Below, piece after piece: positions 17,805-59,806 of a stretch of 59,806 nucleotides of DNA. The stretch's first letter is position 1, and each line of letters begins with the position of its first letter. The notes below the pieces were generated by a model that ran no database searches, had not been told where the DNA came from, and was given only the letters and a program-made list of their open reading frames with translations. Position numbers and translations under genes: made by a program. The stretch comes from a virus, in IMG/VR virus record IMGVR_UViG_3300045988_166944, one strand, 5' to 3'.

Positions 17805-17976
17805 TGTAACCGCGCCATGCGCCCCGTTGGAAGAAATCACCGATTTGAGCGCAAAAGCCAATTATTTGTGGCAATTTGACACAATTACCAAGTATAATGA
17901 GTGTTCCGCGTCGAAAGACGCACTCGTTAATGTTTACAACACTATTAAGGACAAACTAAATGAAGACCGTAAATAA
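17671..17976 (+). CDS. o-spanin (Rz1-like lipoprotein), overlapping the i-spanin gene
   Basis: ATG at 17671 with an AAGAAAGGA RBS. Lipobox MSMLVSAC followed by the Pro-rich stretch LPPLPSNVTAPCAP. It is in the +1 frame relative to the i-spanin. Confidence 0.7.
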   Translation: MKSQNCLVQGCMLMVIAMSMLVSACSTTKSEAVISNLTLPPLPSNVTAPCAPLEEITDLSAKANYLWQFDTITKYNECSASKDALVNVYNTIKDKLNEDRK

Positions 17977-18265
17977 AGAAACCTTCATCAACATGTTGAT
18001 GAAGAACGCCGATGTAAGCAAAGCGGAGGTGACCGCCCAATACAACAACTTCATCAAAACTCTGGACGAAGCCCTGTTGACTGGTAAGACCGTGCTGATT
18101 GGCGATATTTGCCGTGTGACGGCGACTATGCGCAAAGGCGGTAAGGGTATCAACCCTCAGACTGGCGACATCGTTGACCGCAAAGATTGCCCGCGCATTA
18201 AATGCACCGTGTCAAGCATGTTCGCGCCGAAAATCGAAAAAGCCGTCGCCGCTGGTGACAAATAA
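17960..18265 (+). CDS. HU/IHF-like DNA-binding protein
   Basis: GKTVLIGDICRVTATMRKGGKGINPQTGDIV...PRIKCTVSSMF follows the HU fold pattern (RxGRNPxTG arm). Confidence 0.75.
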   Translation: MKTVNKETFINMLMKNADVSKAEVTAQYNNFIKTLDEALLTGKTVLIGDICRVTATMRKGGKGINPQTGDIVDRKDCPRIKCTVSSMFAPKIEKAVAAGDK

Positions 18266-44163: not shown

Positions 44164-46311
44164 CTACGTTTCCTGTAATCTGTTAATCTCATCCCAACTC
44201 ATCTCGGAATAAACCTGCTGGGGTTCATGAATGACAACATTATCTCCTGTTTCATCCCTTGCATCAACTGGGGCGTAAACCAGCGGGTTTTTATCCCATT
44301 CATCAAACAGCGGTGGTGGATTTGACCAATCAATGCGGTCAATCATGAGTAATTTTGAGATTGATACGCCGATACAGTAATATAGCAAGTCCCACGCTTC
44401 GTTGCTTTTATGCGTAGTCTTTTCCCATTTTTTAGGGCTTCGTGTCTCGACGCACAACTCCTGATAAAACTCAATAGACAACCAGTCTGGGAATGTAATT
44501 AGACCATGCCCAACCTCGGTTGAATCCAGTCTGTTCGACAAGGTATCTTTCAAGAGGTTTGAGTTGAGCATTAGCACAGGCACATCACCTCGCGCAGCAC
44601 TCAAAGCATCCTTCTTAGTCGCGTCGGGATATGTTATGAATGCCCTCGGTGAATTTGGTGCAACAACACCCTTAACCAAGTGGAAGCGCGCGGCTTTGCG
44701 TTTGTTTTTCAAGCTGCGATAAAAGTCATACGCCATAGATGTAACGCTCTCACCTTTTTCACGAGCATAACCACCACTGTCACAAACAGTCATCGTAATA
44801 CCCATGCGTCTTCCGCTACCATCAGCCAGAGGGTACAGTCTATCCATTACTTCAGTTTCAATTAAAGACCAGTCCTCGAAGAACGTTGCTGGTCGAACGA
44901 GGTAATTATCGTCATCCACATCAGTACGCGCGGATTTACGAATATCAAACCTATCAATCACTGTAATATCAAAAGGCGTACCAGCGGAAATACCATGCAC
45001 TTGAACAACGAATCTGTTCCTTTGTACGTCGACACACGCAATCAAATTTCGAACGCCGATGGGAACAACGCGGTCACCAATGTCAATCGCGCGGTCTTTC
45101 AGGTGTTCAGGTAATCGTTGTGAAACTTGCGATTTAGGGATGTACGGTTCAGCCAAGTCGGTGTTGTAAAATTTTTGAAGAGCTTCTTCGGAACCTGTGG
45201 TTTTAAACTCTTCCTCGGCAGCCAGATACATTGTGACCAGTTGCCCCCAGTTGACGAACGCGGCAGCCACTCCACGCAGCCAAAAAGATGCGATTCTCGT
45301 TTTGCGCGGACTACCCACCAACTCACCCTGCCGATTGAAATACATCCCGTCCGGAACCCACATACCTGTCTGTTGCATTGCGTGTCGCTGAGACTGCTCA
45401 ATTCGCCCAAAGCATTTCGGGCATTGCAGATAGGTTGATGCAGCAATGTCAATCATGTTGGTCGCTTTCTCGTTCCATTTAAGCATTGAGAACGTGCCTT
45501 CGAAGCGTTCGTTGCAATGCGGACAAGCCCAATACCATCTACGTCTATCACCTCGGTTGTATAACGCAAAAATCCCCTTTGTCGGAGGGGCTTCATGCGA
45601 ACCAGCCACTTCAACCCAGTTAGGGTCTTCAACTGGTCTACTGGGGCTACTCTCAGCCAAGCACATGCGGTACGAACCAAATGTCGTTGTACGTTTTGCT
45701 GCCAAGTCATAAGGCGAGCCATCACCACCAATATCGTCATCCATTCGGTCATAGTCGGTAAGCATAACCCGCGGAATTGGACGACCTGCCAATTCCGATA
45801 CACTCGGATGCGCTAGCGACAGGAATACGCCGTTTTGGAAATGTTTGTCGCTGATATTGTCAGCATCGCGGTCTCTGTTGAGCAACTCACCGCATTCCTT
45901 CGTATCACGTAGCAACTTATCGACACGACGTTTGGAGAAGTCACGGCTCATCGCGGATGTCGGGTTGATAATCAGCATGTCCATCGGGTCACCATGTATT
46001 GAAAACCCAGTCCAGTTAACAATCAAAGCATCCGTCTTACCACACTGCGCAGGAGCAGCCATAATTACACCGTCATGGATTGGACTACATAGCATATCCA
46101 TAGGCTCAATCATGTATGGGGTTGTCGAGTTCTTCCAATAACCAACATACGAGCCGCGATTATTGACATAGCGGTATTTCTCAGCCCACTGGGACACAGT
46201 GAGGCGTTCGGGTGGTTGTAAAATTGATGACAATTCAACGAACATATCGGACAGACTTCCGTACTGCCCGATATGTTTAAAGCTCATCAAGTTCGTGTTC
46301 GTCGATGACAT
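44164..46311 (-). CDS. Terminase large subunit, GpA family
   Basis: Walker A-like AAPAQCGKTD. A zinc-finger pair CPHCNERF ... CPKCFGRI is typical of GpA terminases. The size is 715 aa. ATG at 46287 is an alternative start. Confidence 0.9.
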   Translation of the reverse strand: MSSTNTNLMSFKHIGQYGSLSDMFVELSSILQPPERLTVSQWAEKYRYVNNRGSYVGYWKNSTTPYMIEPMDMLCSPIHDGVIMAAPAQCGKTDALIVNWTGFSIHGDPMDMLIINPTSAMSRDFSKRRVDKLLRDTKECGELLNRDRDADNISDKHFQNGVFLSLAHPSVSELAGRPIPRVMLTDYDRMDDDIGGDGSPYDLAAKRTTTFGSYRMCLAESSPSRPVEDPNWVEVAGSHEAPPTKGIFALYNRGDRRRWYWACPHCNERFEGTFSMLKWNEKATNMIDIAASTYLQCPKCFGRIEQSQRHAMQQTGMWVPDGMYFNRQGELVGSPRKTRIASFWLRGVAAAFVNWGQLVTMYLAAEEEFKTTGSEEALQKFYNTDLAEPYIPKSQVSQRLPEHLKDRAIDIGDRVVPIGVRNLIACVDVQRNRFVVQVHGISAGTPFDITVIDRFDIRKSARTDVDDDNYLVRPATFFEDWSLIETEVMDRLYPLADGSGRRMGITMTVCDSGGYAREKGESVTSMAYDFYRSLKNKRKAARFHLVKGVVAPNSPRAFITYPDATKKDALSAARGDVPVLMLNSNLLKDTLSNRLDSTEVGHGLITFPDWLSIEFYQELCVETRSPKKWEKTTHKSNEAWDLLYYCIGVSISKLLMIDRIDWSNPPPLFDEWDKNPLVYAPVDARDETGDNVVIHEPQQVYSEMSWDEINRLQET

Positions 46312-46918
46312 CTATTTGCTCTCCTGTTAAATCTTCATAGCGGCTGACACGCTCTTTCTGCGCACGCTCGCCGAACTTATCAACCACCGCTTTAGCAACA
46401 CCCTCCATCACTTCGTCGAGCAACTCAACAATGAGTGTCCGCTGCTCAGGTGTGAGGGTGGTCAAACGGTCAATGGTGTCAGGTATCAACTTCACACCCA
46501 TCGCGAACGTCTTGTTCAGTTCAGACGCAGCGTCAATCACGTCTGCTGTATGCCAGTATTCACCAGCCTCGACGAGATAACTAAGACGTGCCTTCTTCGC
46601 CGCCCAGAAGTCTTTCTTGAGAGCAATGGGGAAATGCCCCTTATGGAACACTTCCTCCCACTCCTCGTCCGTCCAGACGGGCGGAACGCATACGCTTGCA
46701 ATATCTCGAATGGCATAAATATCAGCACCGTTACGCGTACCAGACGGTTGAATCTTCGCCTTTCGCACAAGGTTGCCGAGTTCTGTGTTATGGACGTGAA
46801 AAATCAGGGCGGCTTGCTTAATAGTCACGCCCTTGCTCAAAATGTCGTCGATTGTCAGTGTGGCATTCGTGCCATTACCGAGCAACAATGCCGTCGACGC
46901 CTTCTTCATGTTAGCCAT
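46277..46918 (-). CDS. Terminase small subunit candidate (Nu1-like HTH)
   Basis: An N-terminal HTH-like segment, TIKQAALIFHVHNTELGNLVRKAKI, and a position immediately upstream of TerL. Confidence 0.5.
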   Translation of the reverse strand: MANMKKASTALLLGNGTNATLTIDDILSKGVTIKQAALIFHVHNTELGNLVRKAKIQPSGTRNGADIYAIRDIASVCVPPVWTDEEWEEVFHKGHFPIALKKDFWAAKKARLSYLVEAGEYWHTADVIDAASELNKTFAMGVKLIPDTIDRLTTLTPEQRTLIVELLDEVMEGVAKAVVDKFGERAQKERVSRYEDLTGEQIDVIDEHELDEL

Positions 46919-51715: not shown

Positions 51716-51792
51716 TGGTCAGAGAGGTAGGACTCGAACCTACGACCTCTTGCTTCCAAGGCAAGCCATCTACCAACTGATATTACTCTCTG
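51716..51792 (-). tRNA. tRNA-Pro (anticodon UGG) with encoded CCA
   Basis: Cloverleaf: acceptor CAGAGAG/CTCTCTG, D stem TATC/GATG, anticodon stem CTTGC/GCAAG, loop CTTGGAA, T arm GTAGG-TTCGAGT-CCTAC. C1-G72 and A73 fit Pro identity. Confidence 0.8.
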
Positions 51793-53880: not shown

Positions 53881-56496
53881 TTATAAATCGTCCAATTCGT
53901 CTTCGCTCACATCATCTGCGGCAGTATCAAACTTTTCGTCATATTTAAGCTCGGGATTGGTGGCTTCCTCAACGTATTGGCGTATCGCGGCGGACAACTT
54001 AACCGATGCGTTTTTGAAACGGTTTGGATTTTTAGAATAAATCGTGTGTAGATACGATTTATCAATCTCAGGTATCCGTACCGCATTAATTACAAGCTCA
54101 TAACCAAGCGGCACTAAATACTGCTGCCAGCGGAAATATGTTTCTTTGAAGTTTTTATCCGCCAGTTTGATTTGGCGGAAATATTTCACGTCGAGGAATT
54201 CTTCACACAAGAACGGGTCGTCATTTTTAGCAACGATTTCCAGTAGCTCCTGTATCGACTCGGGCATGTTCTCACCAATCAGGCGTTGGCGTGATACCGT
54301 GCGTGGCGCGTCGTAGTATGCCAAAAACTCGTCGCTGATTTTGACTTCAGTTCGGAAGTATTTGCGCAGCGCGCCCGCATGGTTTTTGTAAGTATTGTGC
54401 AGGTCAGGATAGTATTTCGGGTTCTCTTTCTTGAACTGCTCAATCTTACTGGCTTCCTGCCAGCGCGAGTAAATGGCAAAAATACGTCGGTCTGATGAAT
54501 CAATCGGCAACGCAGCCAATCGGTTACTCAAAAACAGATAATTTGCCGTGTTCGGTACGTTAATTTCATCCTTACCTTTAGCAATCATTGCAATGGTTGG
54601 GCTGGCAATGATGGTTTTCAACTTATCGTAGATTTCCACGCCTTTGACACCAGCCAAATGAACCTCTTCAACCGTACCAAAGCTGAGATTGGTCGCCCAT
54701 TTCGTAAACCCAGACTTCATCGCGTCCTGCGATACGATTTTAGCGTTCTCCTTACCAATCATCGCCGAAATCAGGTAGTGGAAGAACGATTTACCGTCAC
54801 CACCAACGCCATGCAGGAATACCGCCCATCCGAGTGTATAACCAGTGTATTGAACCTGATAAGCAACCCATTGGCGGAAAATTTCGCGTTCACGAGGGTC
54901 TTCAATCATGTGTTCAAAATGTTTTTCAACCAGTTCAATGGCTTCCAAATCGCCTTTTGAGAACACTGCTGGCTCGTCCGGCGCGTTATCTCCATTGTAT
55001 GCGTTTATGTATTGATACTTCGAGCGTTCGCTAAATTTGAACAAACTACCCATCGTAGGCATATACACAGCATCAATGACTTTCGGAATTTTGTAAGCGC
55101 GCAATGCCAAGTCCTGCGGGCGCATTTTCATCGACATTGCATCGGGTACGGAGTGGTAAATCAGCGTATCGAATGATGCTGGTGATACGGATAAACGCTC
55201 GTTTATGTCGTAAAACTTGTCACCATTAAGCACATACACCCATTTCTTCATATATTCAGGTGTTTCGAATTGTTCAATAGCCTCAGTGAGCGTTTTTCGA
55301 ACCGCACTCATACTGATTTTTTCACCATACAAGCGGCTGTATGTTCGAGCAATAATACGCTCGATGGCGTTCTGTTGCGCCGTGGTGAATCGGTTATATG
55401 ACGCTTCGACAACGAGTTCGTCGTACTTGCGGATGTCGTCACACTCTTCGAACATACTCTTCAGGTTCTCAAAGGTCTCGGTGAAGTTTTCGTTCTTTGA
55501 TGAAGTATAGTAATCGTACAAAACGCTTGCGAACGTTATTACGTTTGAGCGGTTATTGCGAAAACTATCCCACTTGGCACGAAGCTGGTCATCTTTGATG
55601 TCATACGGTTTACCTGTTGTAGGGTTGATTGCTTTTTGTGACCATTTTTTCCAAATTTGATAACCTTTCTTCGAATCGTCAATCTGGAATTTAATGGCTT
55701 GACCAATGCTGACCCATTTTTCATAAGTATCGTAGAATCCTTCGGTTAGCGAATTCACGATTTCTTCAACGCGCTCGTCCGAAATATTCACCCGCTTGGA
55801 GTCATTATAAAGGTCATAATCAGCATCTTCATCATCTTCAATATGCACATCTTCCAACCCAACCAGATGTAAGTTACTGACAGAGATACGCTCATAATTG
55901 TTTCGATACATTAAGTCATCAAAATATCGAAAAAGCGGCTGAATCATTTCAGGCTTGAATGTCGGCAAGTCTTCAACACGTTCAATATCGAGCAATGAAT
56001 AGTCATTTTCCCACTCGTAATGCAAACCTTCATCATCAGGATAATCACCAAACGCTACAAACTGGCGAGAACCTCCTTTACTGTTATTCAGTAATTCAAT
56101 TTGCATACGACCATACTTTTCAGACAGCCAAGTGGAAGACATGATTTTACCAATATGCTGTGAGACGTAGCATGGAATCAGTGCTTTTGGTTTCTTACCC
56201 CGACGAACCATGATTTTGTCGGTAGACAGCATTGAACGAACATATTGAATAAGCTCTCGCGCTGCGTGTGGGTCTAAAACGTCAATATCTATTGCGAGCA
56301 AATGGTTGCTTGTAACAACACCAAGACCAGCTTTATCCCCAAACATCTGGAGCATCTTCTCATATGACGCTTCGGTCTGTGGCAAATTCGCCCAGTTGAT
56401 TCCTTCTGGGTATTTTTTACCGTGTGTAATTGGCACAACCTCAAAACCTTTGCGCATGAGAGGCAACGCCGTGTCTTTATAGTAACGTTTAGTCAT
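53881..56496 (-). CDS. Primase-polymerase (AEP) fused to an SF3/D5-type helicase
   Basis: The N-terminal part has LAIDIDVLD (a DxD motif). The central and C-terminal parts carry Walker A, FLHGVGGDGKS. The size is 871 aa. Confidence 0.8.
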   Translation of the reverse strand: MTKRYYKDTALPLMRKGFEVVPITHGKKYPEGINWANLPQTEASYEKMLQMFGDKAGLGVVTSNHLLAIDIDVLDPHAARELIQYVRSMLSTDKIMVRRGKKPKALIPCYVSQHIGKIMSSTWLSEKYGRMQIELLNNSKGGSRQFVAFGDYPDDEGLHYEWENDYSLLDIERVEDLPTFKPEMIQPLFRYFDDLMYRNNYERISVSNLHLVGLEDVHIEDDEDADYDLYNDSKRVNISDERVEEIVNSLTEGFYDTYEKWVSIGQAIKFQIDDSKKGYQIWKKWSQKAINPTTGKPYDIKDDQLRAKWDSFRNNRSNVITFASVLYDYYTSSKNENFTETFENLKSMFEECDDIRKYDELVVEASYNRFTTAQQNAIERIIARTYSRLYGEKISMSAVRKTLTEAIEQFETPEYMKKWVYVLNGDKFYDINERLSVSPASFDTLIYHSVPDAMSMKMRPQDLALRAYKIPKVIDAVYMPTMGSLFKFSERSKYQYINAYNGDNAPDEPAVFSKGDLEAIELVEKHFEHMIEDPREREIFRQWVAYQVQYTGYTLGWAVFLHGVGGDGKSFFHYLISAMIGKENAKIVSQDAMKSGFTKWATNLSFGTVEEVHLAGVKGVEIYDKLKTIIASPTIAMIAKGKDEINVPNTANYLFLSNRLAALPIDSSDRRIFAIYSRWQEASKIEQFKKENPKYYPDLHNTYKNHAGALRKYFRTEVKISDEFLAYYDAPRTVSRQRLIGENMPESIQELLEIVAKNDDPFLCEEFLDVKYFRQIKLADKNFKETYFRWQQYLVPLGYELVINAVRIPEIDKSYLHTIYSKNPNRFKNASVKLSAAIRQYVEEATNPELKYDEKFDTAADDVSEDELDDL

Positions 56497-56536
56497 TTTT
56501 TTTTAACTTTCCTATTAAATAGAGGGATTTGACGCG

Positions 56537-56566
56537 ATTGTAGGTCAGAATCGACTTCAATGTCAA
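56537..56566 (-). promoter_or_regulatory. Strong candidate promoter of the replication/late block
   Basis: The minus strand reads TTGACA (56566-56561), an 18-nt spacer, then TACAAT (56542-56537). It lies about 40 nt upstream of the primase ATG. Confidence 0.6.
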
Positions 56567-56995
56567 TCAAGCCTTGTCGATTTACATATGTAAGGAATTC
56601 TTAACAAATAAATGGGCTGTTTTTGGGTCTGAAAACTCAGAAATTTTCCAAAATTGTGTTCGAGAAAATTTCAATTTGCCAATTTTGGAAATTTTTTTGA
56701 GTTTCGGAAATTCAATTTTTTCGATTCTTGGTTTTAAATTTTTAAAAATACTTATAAATTCATCATAAAAAATGATGGCATTTTCCAAATGAGAATTTTT
56801 CTCAACAACGCTTTTTTGTCTTTTTTTTTGCCAAATGCAAGGGTGCTTTTTGGACTTTAACAAAATTTTTTTTTGAGAAAAAAACAAAAAAACAATAAAA
56901 ATCAACAACTTCCATTTTTTGCTAGATGTTAGTAAAAAACGTTCATATCTCTATACATAACGTAACGTATAGCGACTTATATATTTATATATTCC

Positions 56996-57019
56996 CCTCT
57001 CTCTCTCTCTTTTTTTTTA
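56996..57019. repeat. (CT)n microsatellite followed by T9
   Basis: ctctctctctctctc followed by ttttttttt and flanked by (TA)n. Confidence 0.9.
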
Positions 57020-57253
57020 TATATAAGAAAATAAAGGATTTTCCTAACATCTAACAAATAGGGGTTAAGTCCTTGGAAATATTGAAGAAATTTTGTAAGG
57101 ATGCAAAATAACACAACCTAACATCCTAACAAATTTGATACGTCGTTGATTTTTAAGGAAAACAGCAAAAATCACCCATTTTGGTACTAACTCGCATTGG
57201 TACTAACACAAATACTACAAAAACTAACACTATTTCACAATCAGTCTGTCGGC

Positions 57254-57338
57254 GAAAACGACCCTCGATTGGCTCTTGCGGAGTTGGAAAAACACCTCAA
57301 TAGCGATTCCTGCCCCAAAAAGCACCCTCAGAGCGATT
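57254..57338 (+). repeat. Three imperfect direct repeats of about 20 bp (iteron-like)
   Basis: The copies are gaaaacgaccctcgatt (57254-57270), aaaaacacctcaatagcgatt (57288-57308) and aaaaagcaccctcagagcgattt (57316-57338). Confidence 0.6.
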
Positions 57339-57344
57339 TTTATA

Positions 57345-57370
57345 CCCTCCCCTATACCTACCCCTACCCC
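57345..57370 (-). other. C-rich tract with G4-capable sequence on the minus strand
   Basis: The minus strand reads GGGGTAGGGGTAGGTATAGGGGAGGG, which contains four G-runs. Confidence 0.5.
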
Positions 57371-57662
57371 GAGGGAGAAATTCAATCTGAGACGCTCTAC
57401 GCGCGAAATTGAGAATCTGGATTTTCAGATTTTTGGTACAATTTTCGCCACTTTGGAAAAAGTCATAAAAATCAACGCTTTAAGTCGTCGAAAAATTCAT
57501 TTTTCAAAATTGCCTCTGTAAATAATTGATTCATAAGGATTTTTACAAACTAATTTTTTCCAATCATCCGTTTATTTTTAAACGGCATAAAAATTTCCTT
57601 AAAAATCAAGGACTACCGACCATTCAAAATCGGCGCATTCTCGGAATCGGGGGTTCTGCGAC

Positions 57663-57780
57663 CGCACCGCTCACCGCTCGCCGCTGGAAAGTACCTTTTT
57701 GAAAGAGCCATTGTAAAGACCGCCTCATCTTTACATTTCGACCTCTTCCTTTTGACGGCGGTCAGCGGCGGGCGCGTGCG
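57663..57780. other. GC-rich dyad element with a nested hairpin (candidate cos site or structured RNA)
   Basis: The left arm cgcaccgc...cgccgctg (57663-57686) pairs with cagcggcg...cgtgcg (57763-57780). An inner perfect 8-bp hairpin, tgtaaaga/tctttaca, lies at 57712-57735. The flanks are very AT-rich. Confidence 0.5.
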
Positions 57781-57978
57781 TCTTGTTATGTGATGCGATT
57801 GATTTATTTTTAATTTATATTGATTTGTTATAGTGTTTGATAATGCGCAAATAGCATAAAGCCTTGATAGATATACACTATATAAATTGTTAGATTGTTA
57901 TAATTTATAAGTTAACATTTATGATAGACGAAATAAAACCGCCATCAGGCGGCTGGGTAAATAGCTTTAAAATAAACG

Positions 57979-58039
57979 TGTTAGGATTGTTAGGATACAA
58001 TCAGCCGGCGTGTGTCATATCATCCTAACAATCCTAACA
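57979..58039. repeat. Perfect 18-bp inverted repeat built from CCTAACA motifs
   Basis: tgttaggattgttaggat (57979-57996) is the exact reverse complement of atcctaacaatcctaaca (58022-58039), with a 25-bp spacer. Confidence 0.9.
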
Positions 58040-58065
58040 AAAGAAACGCGCAAAAGAAACGCGCA
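58040..58065 (+). repeat. Tandem 13-bp repeat aaagaaacgcgca, two copies, running into the terminator stem
   Basis: 58040-58052 and 58053-58065 are identical. A third, partial copy forms the left arm of the hairpin at 58069. Confidence 0.85.
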
Positions 58066-58102
58066 AAAAGAAACCGCCTGATATTACATCAGGCGGTTTC
58101 TT
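58065..58102 (-). terminator. Rho-independent terminator ending the leftward early operon
   Basis: A 14-bp perfect stem agaaaccgcctgat / atcaggcggtttct with a T-run on the minus strand. It begins 3 nt after the stop at 58105. Confidence 0.8.
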
Positions 58103-58104
58103 GC

Positions 58105-58347
58105 TTATCGTACTACGTCGCTCGAATCAACATCCGTTATTACCAGTTGCAACCCGTCTCGAATAGACTTGGAATATAACGCGATTTGCTTTTCAAAAAA
58201 TCTTTTAAAAGTGGACAACTCGCTTTCATTTTTGGCATATGTAAAACCACTACAACACGCAATGCAATTTATATCGTGCGCCGCGTCTTGGCTGTCCATC
58301 GACCCGTCAATGGATACGGCTTCAATTTTTTTCCATCTTTCCATCAT
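58105..58347 (-). CDS. Hypothetical early protein (80 aa)
   Basis: ATG at 58347 follows an AAAGGA RBS; the track start at 58359 is a GTG. Confidence 0.55.
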   Translation of the reverse strand: MMERWKKIEAVSIDGSMDSQDAAHDINCIACCSGFTYAKNESELSTFKRFFEKQIALYSKSIRDGLQLVITDVDSSDVVR

Positions 58348-58471
58348 ATATCCTTTCACATCGTATCTGCGGCCTCGATTAAGACGTAGGCCACCAAAAA
58401 GGTTAGAACTAACGTGGCTAAATTTGCCGATTGGATACCCGCAAACAAACAGGATAACGCGCTAATATAGA

Positions 58472-59523: not shown

Positions 59524-59787
59524 TTACAAATAGCTGGAATGAAGAGTTTCACAATATCCAATTTCTTCATCGTTGGAAATTACTTTGATTTCAAAAGCGT
59601 CCTCATGCGCATAGCAACTGCCATAAATTTCAGCAATGGCTATACCGCCTTTATGTTTGATGCTGATTGAATGCACAATATCCTCGAGAATATCAGCCGC
59701 GTTTTCTTTCAAATACGCATCAATTTGCGACAACACAAAAGAATCATTACAAACGCCTTTAACGTCTTTGAATTTTTCGGTATTCAT
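59524..59787 (-). CDS. Hypothetical early protein (87 aa), first gene after promoter copy A
   Basis: Its start codon and leader are identical to the duplicated leader at 1552-1575. The promoter lies at 77-104 across the circular junction. Confidence 0.65.
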   Translation of the reverse strand: MNTEKFKDVKGVCNDSFVLSQIDAYLKENAADILEDIVHSISIKHKGGIAIAEIYGSCYAHEDAFEIKVISNDEEIGYCETLHSSYL

Positions 59788-59806
59788 TTTAAAAATCCTT
59801 TCTTTC
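59752..59806. repeat. Terminal overlap identical to 1-55
   Basis: Exact 55-nt match to the window start. Confidence 0.95.

Follow-up and report, generated by a model that had tools for sequence, protein, structure and literature searches.

The non-coding region at positions 56497–58104 of the virus record IMGVR_UViG_3300045988_166944 (59,806 nucleotides (nt), the whole of which is called the window here) is the probable meeting point of two genome ends. We estimate a probability of roughly 0.88 that it is the junction of the ends of a linear genome packaged by cohesive ends (cos), that of a Chi-like (Casjensviridae-type) virulent siphovirus, displayed in circular or concatemeric form. The region comprises 1608 nt and is bounded by the start codon of the prim-pol/DUF5906 primase-helicase gene (53881–56496, minus strand) and the stop codon of a small minus-strand gene (58105–58359). 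Its guanine-plus-cytosine (GC) content is 34.6%, compared with 45.5% for the whole window, and it is the lowest-GC stretch of its size anywhere in the window. Positions 1–55 and 59752–59806 are identical over 55 nt. This overlap means that the window is a circular assembly with a unique length of 59,751 base pairs (bp) and an arbitrary start position.

Fixed contig ends and the probable cos site

The primase protein, searched against IMG/VR, identified 17 related loci. Many related contigs terminate within the region, and their ends fall into two classes, namely breaks in low-complexity DNA and ends at one fixed base. At least five independent termini of relatives, including an adapter-genome junction, lie at exactly this base. 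In contig 155652 (60,687 nt), the 12-nt sequence CGGGCGCAGAAC stands at both termini as a terminal duplication. Contigs 073489 (the same as ERZ773072.76) and ERZ773076.2505 end with ...GGGGGTTCTGCGCCCG, and 3300008565_000041 starts at GTTCTGCGCCCG. In the record IMGVR_UViG_3300045988_089690 (089690, L029), the first 47 nt (1–47) are followed directly by GTTCTGCGCCCG. These 47 nt, which we take to be the Illumina TruSeq universal adapter, are contamination in a public database, informative as the mark of a natural end, and the fusion shows that the adapter had been ligated to such an end. A sixth contig, 3300009958_000004, halts 18 nt before the site. In other contigs, and in the window as well, the sequence continues across the junction, as is expected for replicating DNA.

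The fixed ends define the nicking site cosN (Table 1). The window differs from its relatives at one overhang base (A at 57661) and is identical at 11 of the 12 positions, and the 20 columns to the left of the 12-mer are 100% invariant. From the identity of the site and of these 20 nt, we infer that the window has the same ends. The top strand would be nicked between 57652 and 57653 and the bottom strand between 57664 and 57665, leaving the overhang 5'-CGGKCGCAGAAC on the primase-side end. Because the 12 nt are found on both ends, the overhang is probably a 5' extension of 12 nt that was filled in at end repair, whereas trimming would have removed a 3' overhang from either end. In phage Chi, the 12-base extensions 5'-GGTGCGCAGAGC were determined experimentally (Hendrix et al. 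2015, PMC4342425). The overhang matches that of Chi at 9 of 12 positions (CGGGCGCAGAAC compared with GGTGCGCAGAGC), and the record of phage Salvo annotates a 12-nt cos overhang, GTCAGCGCCCCC, that has the GCGCCC core in common with the window. The sequence-only reading had found no element here that matched a motif it could name. This view was overly pessimistic, as cosN is homologous to the Chi cos, two flanking elements are common to Chi and Salvo, and three of the six matches of the window to the consensus of integration host factor (IHF) lie in this region. That reading had also suggested an origin of replication, possibly combined with cos; the cos part stands, with the ends mapped to 57653–57664, and the origin part is treated below as a candidate.

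The two flanks of cosN carry conserved elements of different kinds. The primase-side arm is more conserved than the flanking coding DNA and holds the dyad CGCATTCTCGGAA (57634–57646), TTAAAAATCAAGGACTACC (57598–57616) and phased A/T tracts, and TTWAAAATCAAGSACTACC is retained in the distant relatives L014 and L015. On the early-gene side, GGAAGTACCTTTT is kept in all relatives including L014 and L015, and this arm may be called cosQ-like by position only. The matches to the IHF consensus WATCAANNNNTTR in the region are at 57470 (plus strand), 57519 and 57857 (both minus strand), of which the minus-strand site at 57519–57531 lies at the cosB-like arm. At 57470, each of the 10 aligned relatives conserves WATCAA and TTR but not the sequence of the NNNN spacer, a footprint-like pattern that would be expected of a real IHF site. 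The phage encodes a protein of the HU/IHF family (17960–18265, PF00216). Its large terminase subunit TerL (44164–46311) matches PF05876 (GpA_ATPase, 5.7e-65) and PF20454 (GpA_nuclease, 2.4e-53) and is of the lambda gpA type, and the small subunit TerS (46277–46918) matches phrog_141. Both terminase genes are located about 11 kb from cos, with the replication module (primase, exonuclease, single-stranded DNA-binding protein (SSB), DNA polymerase, and helicase) in between.

In the proposed mechanism, the gpA-type terminase would cut concatemers with nicks staggered by 12 bp at the positions given above. The virion DNA would carry complementary 12-nt 5' overhangs and re-anneal after injection. 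The primase-side arm of about 130 bp, with its dyad CGCATTCTCGGAA, A/T tracts, and IHF-consensus sites, would most likely be the cosB-like site at which terminase and IHF assemble, and GGAAGTACCTTTT on the opposite side, at 22 nt from the nick, would stand at the place where lambda has cosQ. The side of cosB and a role for IHF or HU are proposed with due reserve, the former on the asymmetry of conservation and the order of DNA entry. In lambda, the end that enters the cell first is the end that was packaged last. The preprint on phage JS26 states that the family packages by cos and proposes that the early-gene end enters the cell first. Taken together with the order in lambda, a packaging start on the primase side would fit.

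Low-complexity or variable DNA could have caused the contig ends to cluster as an artefact of assembly, in which case the clustering would say nothing about physical ends. The region has many homopolymers, and three contigs do end in or beside such tracts. L003 and L013 break inside the (CT)n/poly-T/poly-A tract around 57000–57060 and L012 about 35 nt from it; the end of L003 lies in (AG)n, that of L013 at a poly-A/TA tract, and that of L012 near a poly-T run. These three are ordinary low-complexity assembly breaks. In contrast, the cos-type ends fall at an identical base within the GC-rich block of highest complexity and 100% invariance, are found in three or more separate sequence records or datasets, and are accompanied by the 12-nt duplication and the adapter junction, at a site homologous to an experimentally determined cos. 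An artefact is therefore hardly credible as an explanation of the fixed ends. Several points nevertheless weigh against the junction of cos ends as described. Since L003, L012, and L013 end elsewhere in the region, not every contig end here is physical. The ends are taken from the contigs of relatives and not from this genome, which is a circular assembly differing at one overhang base. Moreover, the 5' polarity depends on the logic of library preparation together with homology to Chi, and a motif pair at +59/+76 on the other arm, at a distance like that of R3 in lambda, could mark cosB there.

One further contig end is of another kind. L016 (IMGVR_UViG_3300045988_048538) has at positions 1–60 the inverted 23 nt of the primase 5' end joined to the equivalent of window position ~56940, and this head is a chimeric or snap-back assembly end.

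Table 1. Elements of the junction region, in order of position in the window
Feature	Position	Strand	Sequence or components	Remarks
Promoter of the primase/replication operon (predicted)	56537–56595	−	−35 TTGACA 56566–56561; −10 TACAAT 56542–56537	
TTGGAAA/TTTCCAA cluster	56640–56790		56645, 56685, 56782 and TCGGAAA at ~56705	upstream of the primase promoter
Candidate origin core	56918–57133		inverted tandem TGTWAG(G), 56918–56935 versus 57043–57057	around an AT-rich core with (CT)7, T9 and (TA)4
Two invariant blocks	57300–57336; 57380–57416		CGATTCCTGCCCCAAAAAGCACCCTCAGAGCGATT; AATTCAATCTGAGACGCTCTACGCGCGAAATTGAGAA	flank the C-rich CCCTA-like tract 57345–57372
IHF-consensus site	57466–57482	+	ATAAAAATCAACGCTTTA; WATCAANNNNTTR with upstream A-tract	~183 nt from the nick
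cosB-like arm, primase side	57520–57652			most conserved stretch of the region; 80–100% of columns invariant (6 genomes)
cosN, 12-nt cohesive end	57653–57664		GTTCTGCGACCG in the window, GTTCTGCGCCCG in all relatives	from contig ends of relatives
cosQ-like arm, early-gene side	57686–57735		GGAAAGTACCTTTTT (57686–57700), then the pair TGTAAAGA-N8-TCTTTACA (57712–57735)	22 nt from the nick
Right-hand motif cluster	57886–58074		TGTTAGATTGTTAT (57888–57901); TGTTAGGATTGTTAGGAT / ATCCTAACAATCCTAACA, 18-bp inverted repeat; CAAAAGAAACGCG x2.8	
Terminator-like hairpin	57937–57954	−	AGCCGCC-TGAT-GGCGGTT + TTATTT	stem kept in relatives; among the strongest consensus structures
Intrinsic terminator of the early operon (predicted)	58068–58102	−	15-bp perfect stem AAGAAACCGCCTGAT / ATCAGGCGGTTTCTT, then minus-strand T-run	

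Non-coding DNA and repeated motifs

The region is non-coding here and in at least eight related genomes. Six relatives give one unbroken BLAST alignment over 56003–58331 at about 72–75% identity, and this continuity means that they carry the same DNA at this place and not genes. Nearly all open reading frames (ORFs) of the window in the region are broken by stops or frameshifts in several relatives; the exceptions are two short minus-strand ORFs spanning the cos cut. Substitutions in the region show no 3-nt periodicity, which is clear in the flanking genes (0.15/0.66/0.19 and 0.72/0.33/0.38). The broken frames and the absent codon periodicity bear out the sequence-only reading, which had seen no credible coding capacity here, and led us to reject hidden small genes. 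Ordinary genes in the relatives would have spoken against that reading, and homologous non-coding DNA was found there instead. A nucleotide search of GenBank phages with the region gave no match.

An RNA or a small protein overlooked by standard gene calling is very unlikely to be what the region encodes. Several invariant blocks (57300–57336 and 57380–57416) could be read in this way, two A-to-G changes at 57331–57332 in L008 and L009 would retain G-U pairs with CGCTCT at 57393–57398 (plus strand), and the stretch 57955–58067 sits between two terminators. However, no Rfam family comes near its gathering score. At the gathering threshold, only a tRNA-Pro elsewhere in the window passes and none in the region; at permissive thresholds, the best match in the region reaches 27.7 bits against a cut-off of 139.7, and nothing is credible. 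A sliding RNAalifold scan makes the terminator hairpins alone stand out as strong consensus structures in the region, and the breakage of nearly all ORFs in relatives and the lack of codon periodicity speak against a protein. The perfect 18-bp inverted repeat described by the sequence-only reading is present (arms 57979–57996 and 58022–58039) but not conserved, as its right arm is absent from L006, L008, L009, and L011; with the right arm missing in most relatives, it was rejected as a conserved RNA hairpin. The blocks within 57300–57416 have 85–95% invariant columns, no coding periodicity, and RNAalifold z-scores of only −3 to −4, and TTCCTGCCCCAAAAA and CCTACCC persist in L014 and L015. As a working guess, they may be a protein-binding element of the cos arm.

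Motif counts were compared with Markov-1 simulations of the region. TTGGAAA/TTTCCAA occurs in seven exact copies where 1.0 is expected, and none of 2000 simulations reaches seven. The motif is far above chance, and the count of at least eight given by the sequence-only reading is corrected to seven exact copies, besides which the near variants CTGGAAA and TCGGAAA occur. Besides the cluster in Table 1, copies are found at 57073, 57284, 57453, and 57557. The motif recurs at the equivalent place in L006–L011 and as TTGGAAATTTGCCATT, two to three times, in L014 and L015. A CCTAACA family had likewise been described, and it is confirmed by seven copies of CCTAACA/TGTTAGG in the region compared with three in the remaining 58 kb. 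The degenerate form CYTWACA is found 12 times in the region (0.78 expected), and TAAAAATCAA occurs in four copies (0.06 expected). Each of eight genomes has 12–16 copies of TGTWARG/CYTWACA at conserved distances from cosN, at about −1064, −828, −611 to −529, +59/+76, and +234 to +380. The group of L014 and L015, with a primase that is 63% identical, keeps the same heptamer at −602 to −521 and at +61/+79. Within the candidate origin core, the motif positions from −611 to −521 relative to cos are conserved in eight genomes. In the window, the main cluster follows the AT-rich low-complexity part, with TGTAAGG at 57094 and CCTAACA at 57117 and 57125. The low-complexity core (28% GC) is kept in kind among relatives and variable in sequence, and the breaks of three public contigs lie within this core or at its border.

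The TGTWARG array with this AT-rich core, at about 56900–57140, is the best candidate for an origin, although we hold this at somewhat less than even odds. A replication origin as the dominant function of the region is held with the same reserve. It is compatible with cos and competes only with the view that the array serves packaging. The TGTWARG/CYTWACA copies would then be iterons read by the prim-pol/superfamily 3 (SF3) primase-helicase. The inverted pairs at 56918–56935 and 57043–57057 would load the helicase on the AT-rich core between them, and the pair at 56581–56594 would let the primase-helicase regulate its own promoter, like the Rep proteins of iteron replicons. The 12 copies against 0.78 expected, with only three exact CCTAACA copies in the other 58 kb, and their conserved positions relative to cos in eight genomes, including the group with the 63%-identical primase, point in this direction. 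So do the inverted arrangement around the tract of lowest GC (28%) and the near-palindrome located some 60 nt before the point where primase transcription is predicted to start. In addition, an array adjoins the primase gene in Chi, Salvo, and JS26 despite differing gene orientation, and L014 and L015 keep the motif without conservation of the neighbouring small early genes, so that a regulator encoded by these genes is unlikely. On the other hand, the turning points of GC skew (~2000 and ~18000) track gene orientation and not this region, and GC skew was dismissed as an origin indicator. DnaA boxes (TTATCCACA, at most one mismatch) number 21 in the window against 14.7 expected, with none in 56497–58104; TTTTCCAAA was dropped as a relaxed DnaA box because it matches at only 7 of 9 positions. 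TerS, as conserved as the primase (66% versus 63%), is equally eligible as the reader of the motif, and an array at 1901–2008 offers an alternative iteron-like site. In the literature consulted, neither an origin nor a repeat array was found to have been described for Casjensviridae.

This other array lies in the 600-nt divergent intergenic region 1552–2158, which separates the leftward early genes from the rightward operon. It consists of three near-perfect tandem copies of the 36-nt TTCACCCCTAGACAGGCTCTCTCCCGATATAAAATT, at least one of which is conserved in relatives. It is a candidate for an iteron-like or regulatory array and thus for a rival origin location.

The same heptamers could instead be sites for the small terminase subunit, equivalent to the R sites of lambda, in which case the packaging signal would extend over the whole region and cosB would lie on the early-gene arm. 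We regard this as less probable than the origin, and as well below even odds, but as a strong contender. All close relatives have an inverted pair at 59–83 nt from the nick; in L014 and L015, the pair is direct and stands at +61/+79. A distance of 59–83 nt is close to that between R3 and cosN in lambda. In JS26, a copy of that phage's motif is located 46 nt in from the left end, and the motif of the window is essentially confined to the cos region. However, most copies lie 230–1060 bp from the nick and on both sides of it, unlike any characterised cosB, and one pair lies immediately next to the primase promoter. The opposite ends of Chi and Salvo lack the motif found on their primase side, and the arm with the strongest conservation near the nick (57520–57652) contains no TGTWARG. 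A more speculative reading, which we consider doubtful, combines both roles. The array is split by cosN (−1064 to −528 and +59 to +380) and would be complete only after the ends have annealed or in concatemers. It could thereby couple origin firing, the primase promoter, or both to circularisation, the same complex would mark cos for the terminase, and Chi-like phages in general would have conserved this arrangement, each lineage with its own motifs.

Transcription signals, sequence tracts, and other parts of the genome

The sequence-only reading had placed a TTGACA-18-TACAAT promoter beside the primase gene. It is found on the minus strand (56566–56537), with 11 of 12 matches, and is a conserved promoter of the sigma-70 type. 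The relatives have TTGACG-N18-TAGAAT and TTTACATATGTAAAG, which gives the combined consensus TTGACR-N18-TASAAT. The near-palindrome TTTACATATGTAAG (56581–56594) is an inverted pair of the TGTWARG family centred about 60 nt upstream of the predicted transcription start (near 56530), and the ribosome binding site AGGAAAG precedes the primase ATG at 56496. At the other edge of the region, the terminator at 58068–58102 directly follows the stop codon of gene 58105–58359; its RNAalifold z-score is −11.7 (minus strand), and its stem is conserved in relatives. Together with the hairpin at 57937–57954, it would end the leftward early operon before cos. The right-hand motif cluster around these terminators varies in copy number and orientation among relatives (+234, +257, +325, and +334; L006, L008, L009, and L011), a pattern that would fit protein-binding sites and not an RNA hairpin. 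No sigma-70 promoter was found by scan or by eye in 57780–57935, despite the conservation of that stretch. A sigma-54-like TGGCAC-N5-CGCA at 57181–57207 occurs in L001 only, reads TGGTAC in the window, is not conserved, and was dropped.

Nearly all of the other features listed from the sequence, namely homopolymers, (CT)n, a C-rich tract, and direct repeats, were found where they had been described. The region holds 6 of the 24 A or T runs of at least 7 nt in the window, with T9 at 56821, 56866, and 57010. (CT)7 occupies 56997–57010 and (TA)4 occupies 57018–57025. The C-rich tract CCCTCCCCTATACCTACCCCTACCCC at 57345–57372 is capable of forming a G-quadruplex on the minus strand. Direct repeats are TTGGTACTAAC, twice, at 57181 and 57197, and CAAAAGAAACGCG, 2.8 times, at 58038–58074.

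Several observations concern the rest of the genome and its host. The window has no GATC site where 229 are expected, and it is depleted in GGCC (6 against 160), CCGG (9 against 160), and CTAG (27 against 229). GATC is also absent from eight of nine relatives' loci checked, and L001 has 11 sites. This depletion looks like restriction avoidance and may serve as a clue to the host. The DNA uptake sequences of Neisseria, Kingella, and Eikenella and the uptake signal sequences of Pasteurellaceae, sought as host clues, are absent, and a primase search for a prophage or host in 185,579 species genomes gave no relative. A module of about 138 nt is duplicated at 34–171 and 1549–1686 with 90% identity. 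It holds a TTGACA-N17 promoter-like box and the 5' end and ribosome binding site context of small genes, and the two copies are probably repeated early promoter cassettes. A tRNA-Pro gene (TGG; 51716–51792, minus strand) lies within the replication module between the exonuclease and SSB genes.

Comparison with Casjensviridae-type phages and other systems

The GenBank matches of the primase-helicase are Casjensviridae-type phages only, at 24–30% identity (Chi-like phages, Salvo, Sano, BcepNazgul, AH2, and JS26). The end architecture of this family, with shared cos-flank elements, the same gene order, and a gene-free junction of about 1.1–1.6 kb, is present in the window; the likeness is judged on architecture, and the protein identities to named members are low.

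In Chi, the terminase genes are more than 10 kb from cos with the replication genes in between (PMC4342425), and the gene order terminase-replication-cos is the same in the window. The 13-mer CGCATTCTCGGAA occurs at Chi positions 13–25, beside the nick on the primase side. On the other side, at the right end of Chi, AAAAGGTACTT is 20 nt from the nick, comparable to GGAAGTACCTTTT at 22 nt in the window. About 1.15 kb around the joined ends of Chi is free of genes, and Chi has its own heptamer, GTTACAA, seven times in both orientations next to the primase gene. In contrast, there is no nucleotide similarity beyond the short elements, and the primase is only about 24–30% identical. The primase gene points away from cos in the window and towards cos in Chi, and Chi has a helix-turn-helix gene (gp1) between cos and primase where the window has none. 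Moreover, the repeated motif is another sequence and lies on both sides of cos in the window, and the region of the window is longer (1.6 kb) and much more AT-rich.

In Salvo (Xylella phage, Salvovirus), GGAAGTACCTTTTT is separated from the overhang by 21 nt, and the primase side carries CGCATTTTTCGGAA, which is the dyad with one extra base. Like the window, Salvo and JS26 (Serratia phage, Dunedinvirus) have small genes transcribed towards the non-primase end and motifs by the primase gene, GTGACA in 12 copies in Salvo and GCGTAGG in four copies in JS26. Both phages differ from the window in hosts, base composition (GC-rich), repeat sequences, and the opposite orientation of the primase, and the JS26 record has no recognisable GTACC element. 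In Chi, Salvo, and JS26 alike, 1.15–1.2 kb across the joined ends is without genes, the small genes are read towards the non-primase end, and the primase-side motifs occur in both orientations, at most a single copy being present in the neighbouring coding DNA. Separately, the non-primase ends of these phages carry a second and different repeat family each: GATATACGCGGCGTGCGT in four to five copies in Chi (L040, 737–1279), CAAGGCCGGGCAGCG in three to four copies in Salvo (L041, 13–503), and GATGATCGGGCTATCTGATAC in three copies in JS26 (L042, 1–751). No description of these second families was found in the literature consulted.

The cos region of the window resembles that of lambda in the probable 12-nt 5' overhang made by a large terminase of the gpA family, in conserved elements on both sides, and in IHF-consensus sites within 200 bp. 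It differs in that cos is not next to the terminase genes, no sequence similarity exists, and the equivalents of R sites are only candidates. In addition, the non-coding region is several times longer and includes a promoter, terminators, and the motif array. The array invites comparison with iteron origins that have an autoregulated initiator, such as the Rep systems of P1, F, and pSC101, and with ori and crr of P4, which are read by the alpha primase-helicase. SF3 helicases load on inverted sites around a meltable core. The window is similar to these systems in a short motif repeated by an initiator-like gene, an AT-rich meltable segment, and an inverted pair at a promoter, and its two separated clusters resemble ori and crr of P4. 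The motif of 7 nt is, however, shorter than typical iterons of 17–22 nt, the clusters straddle cos, and the initiator role of the primase-helicase is putative.

For an uncultivated phage lineage known only from metagenomes, these results fix the true ends, the orientation, and the unique length (59,751 bp), so that the genome can be drawn as a linear cos genome like that of Chi. Three short cos elements are common to Chi-like phages with widely divergent proteins, namely a 12-mer overhang rich in GC, the dyad CGCATTCTCGGAA, and GGAAGTACCTTTT at a distance of about 21 nt from the nick, and they form a practical signature to locate cos in metagenomic Casjensviridae-like contigs. The motif array by the primase gene is a concrete and testable candidate for the still unmapped replication origin of the family. 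On sequence comparison, the hub of the window appears to be the local version of a family-wide genome-end architecture. The region is typical of the Chi-like phage family and is a known type of element, to which the three-element cos signature and the origin candidate are added here.

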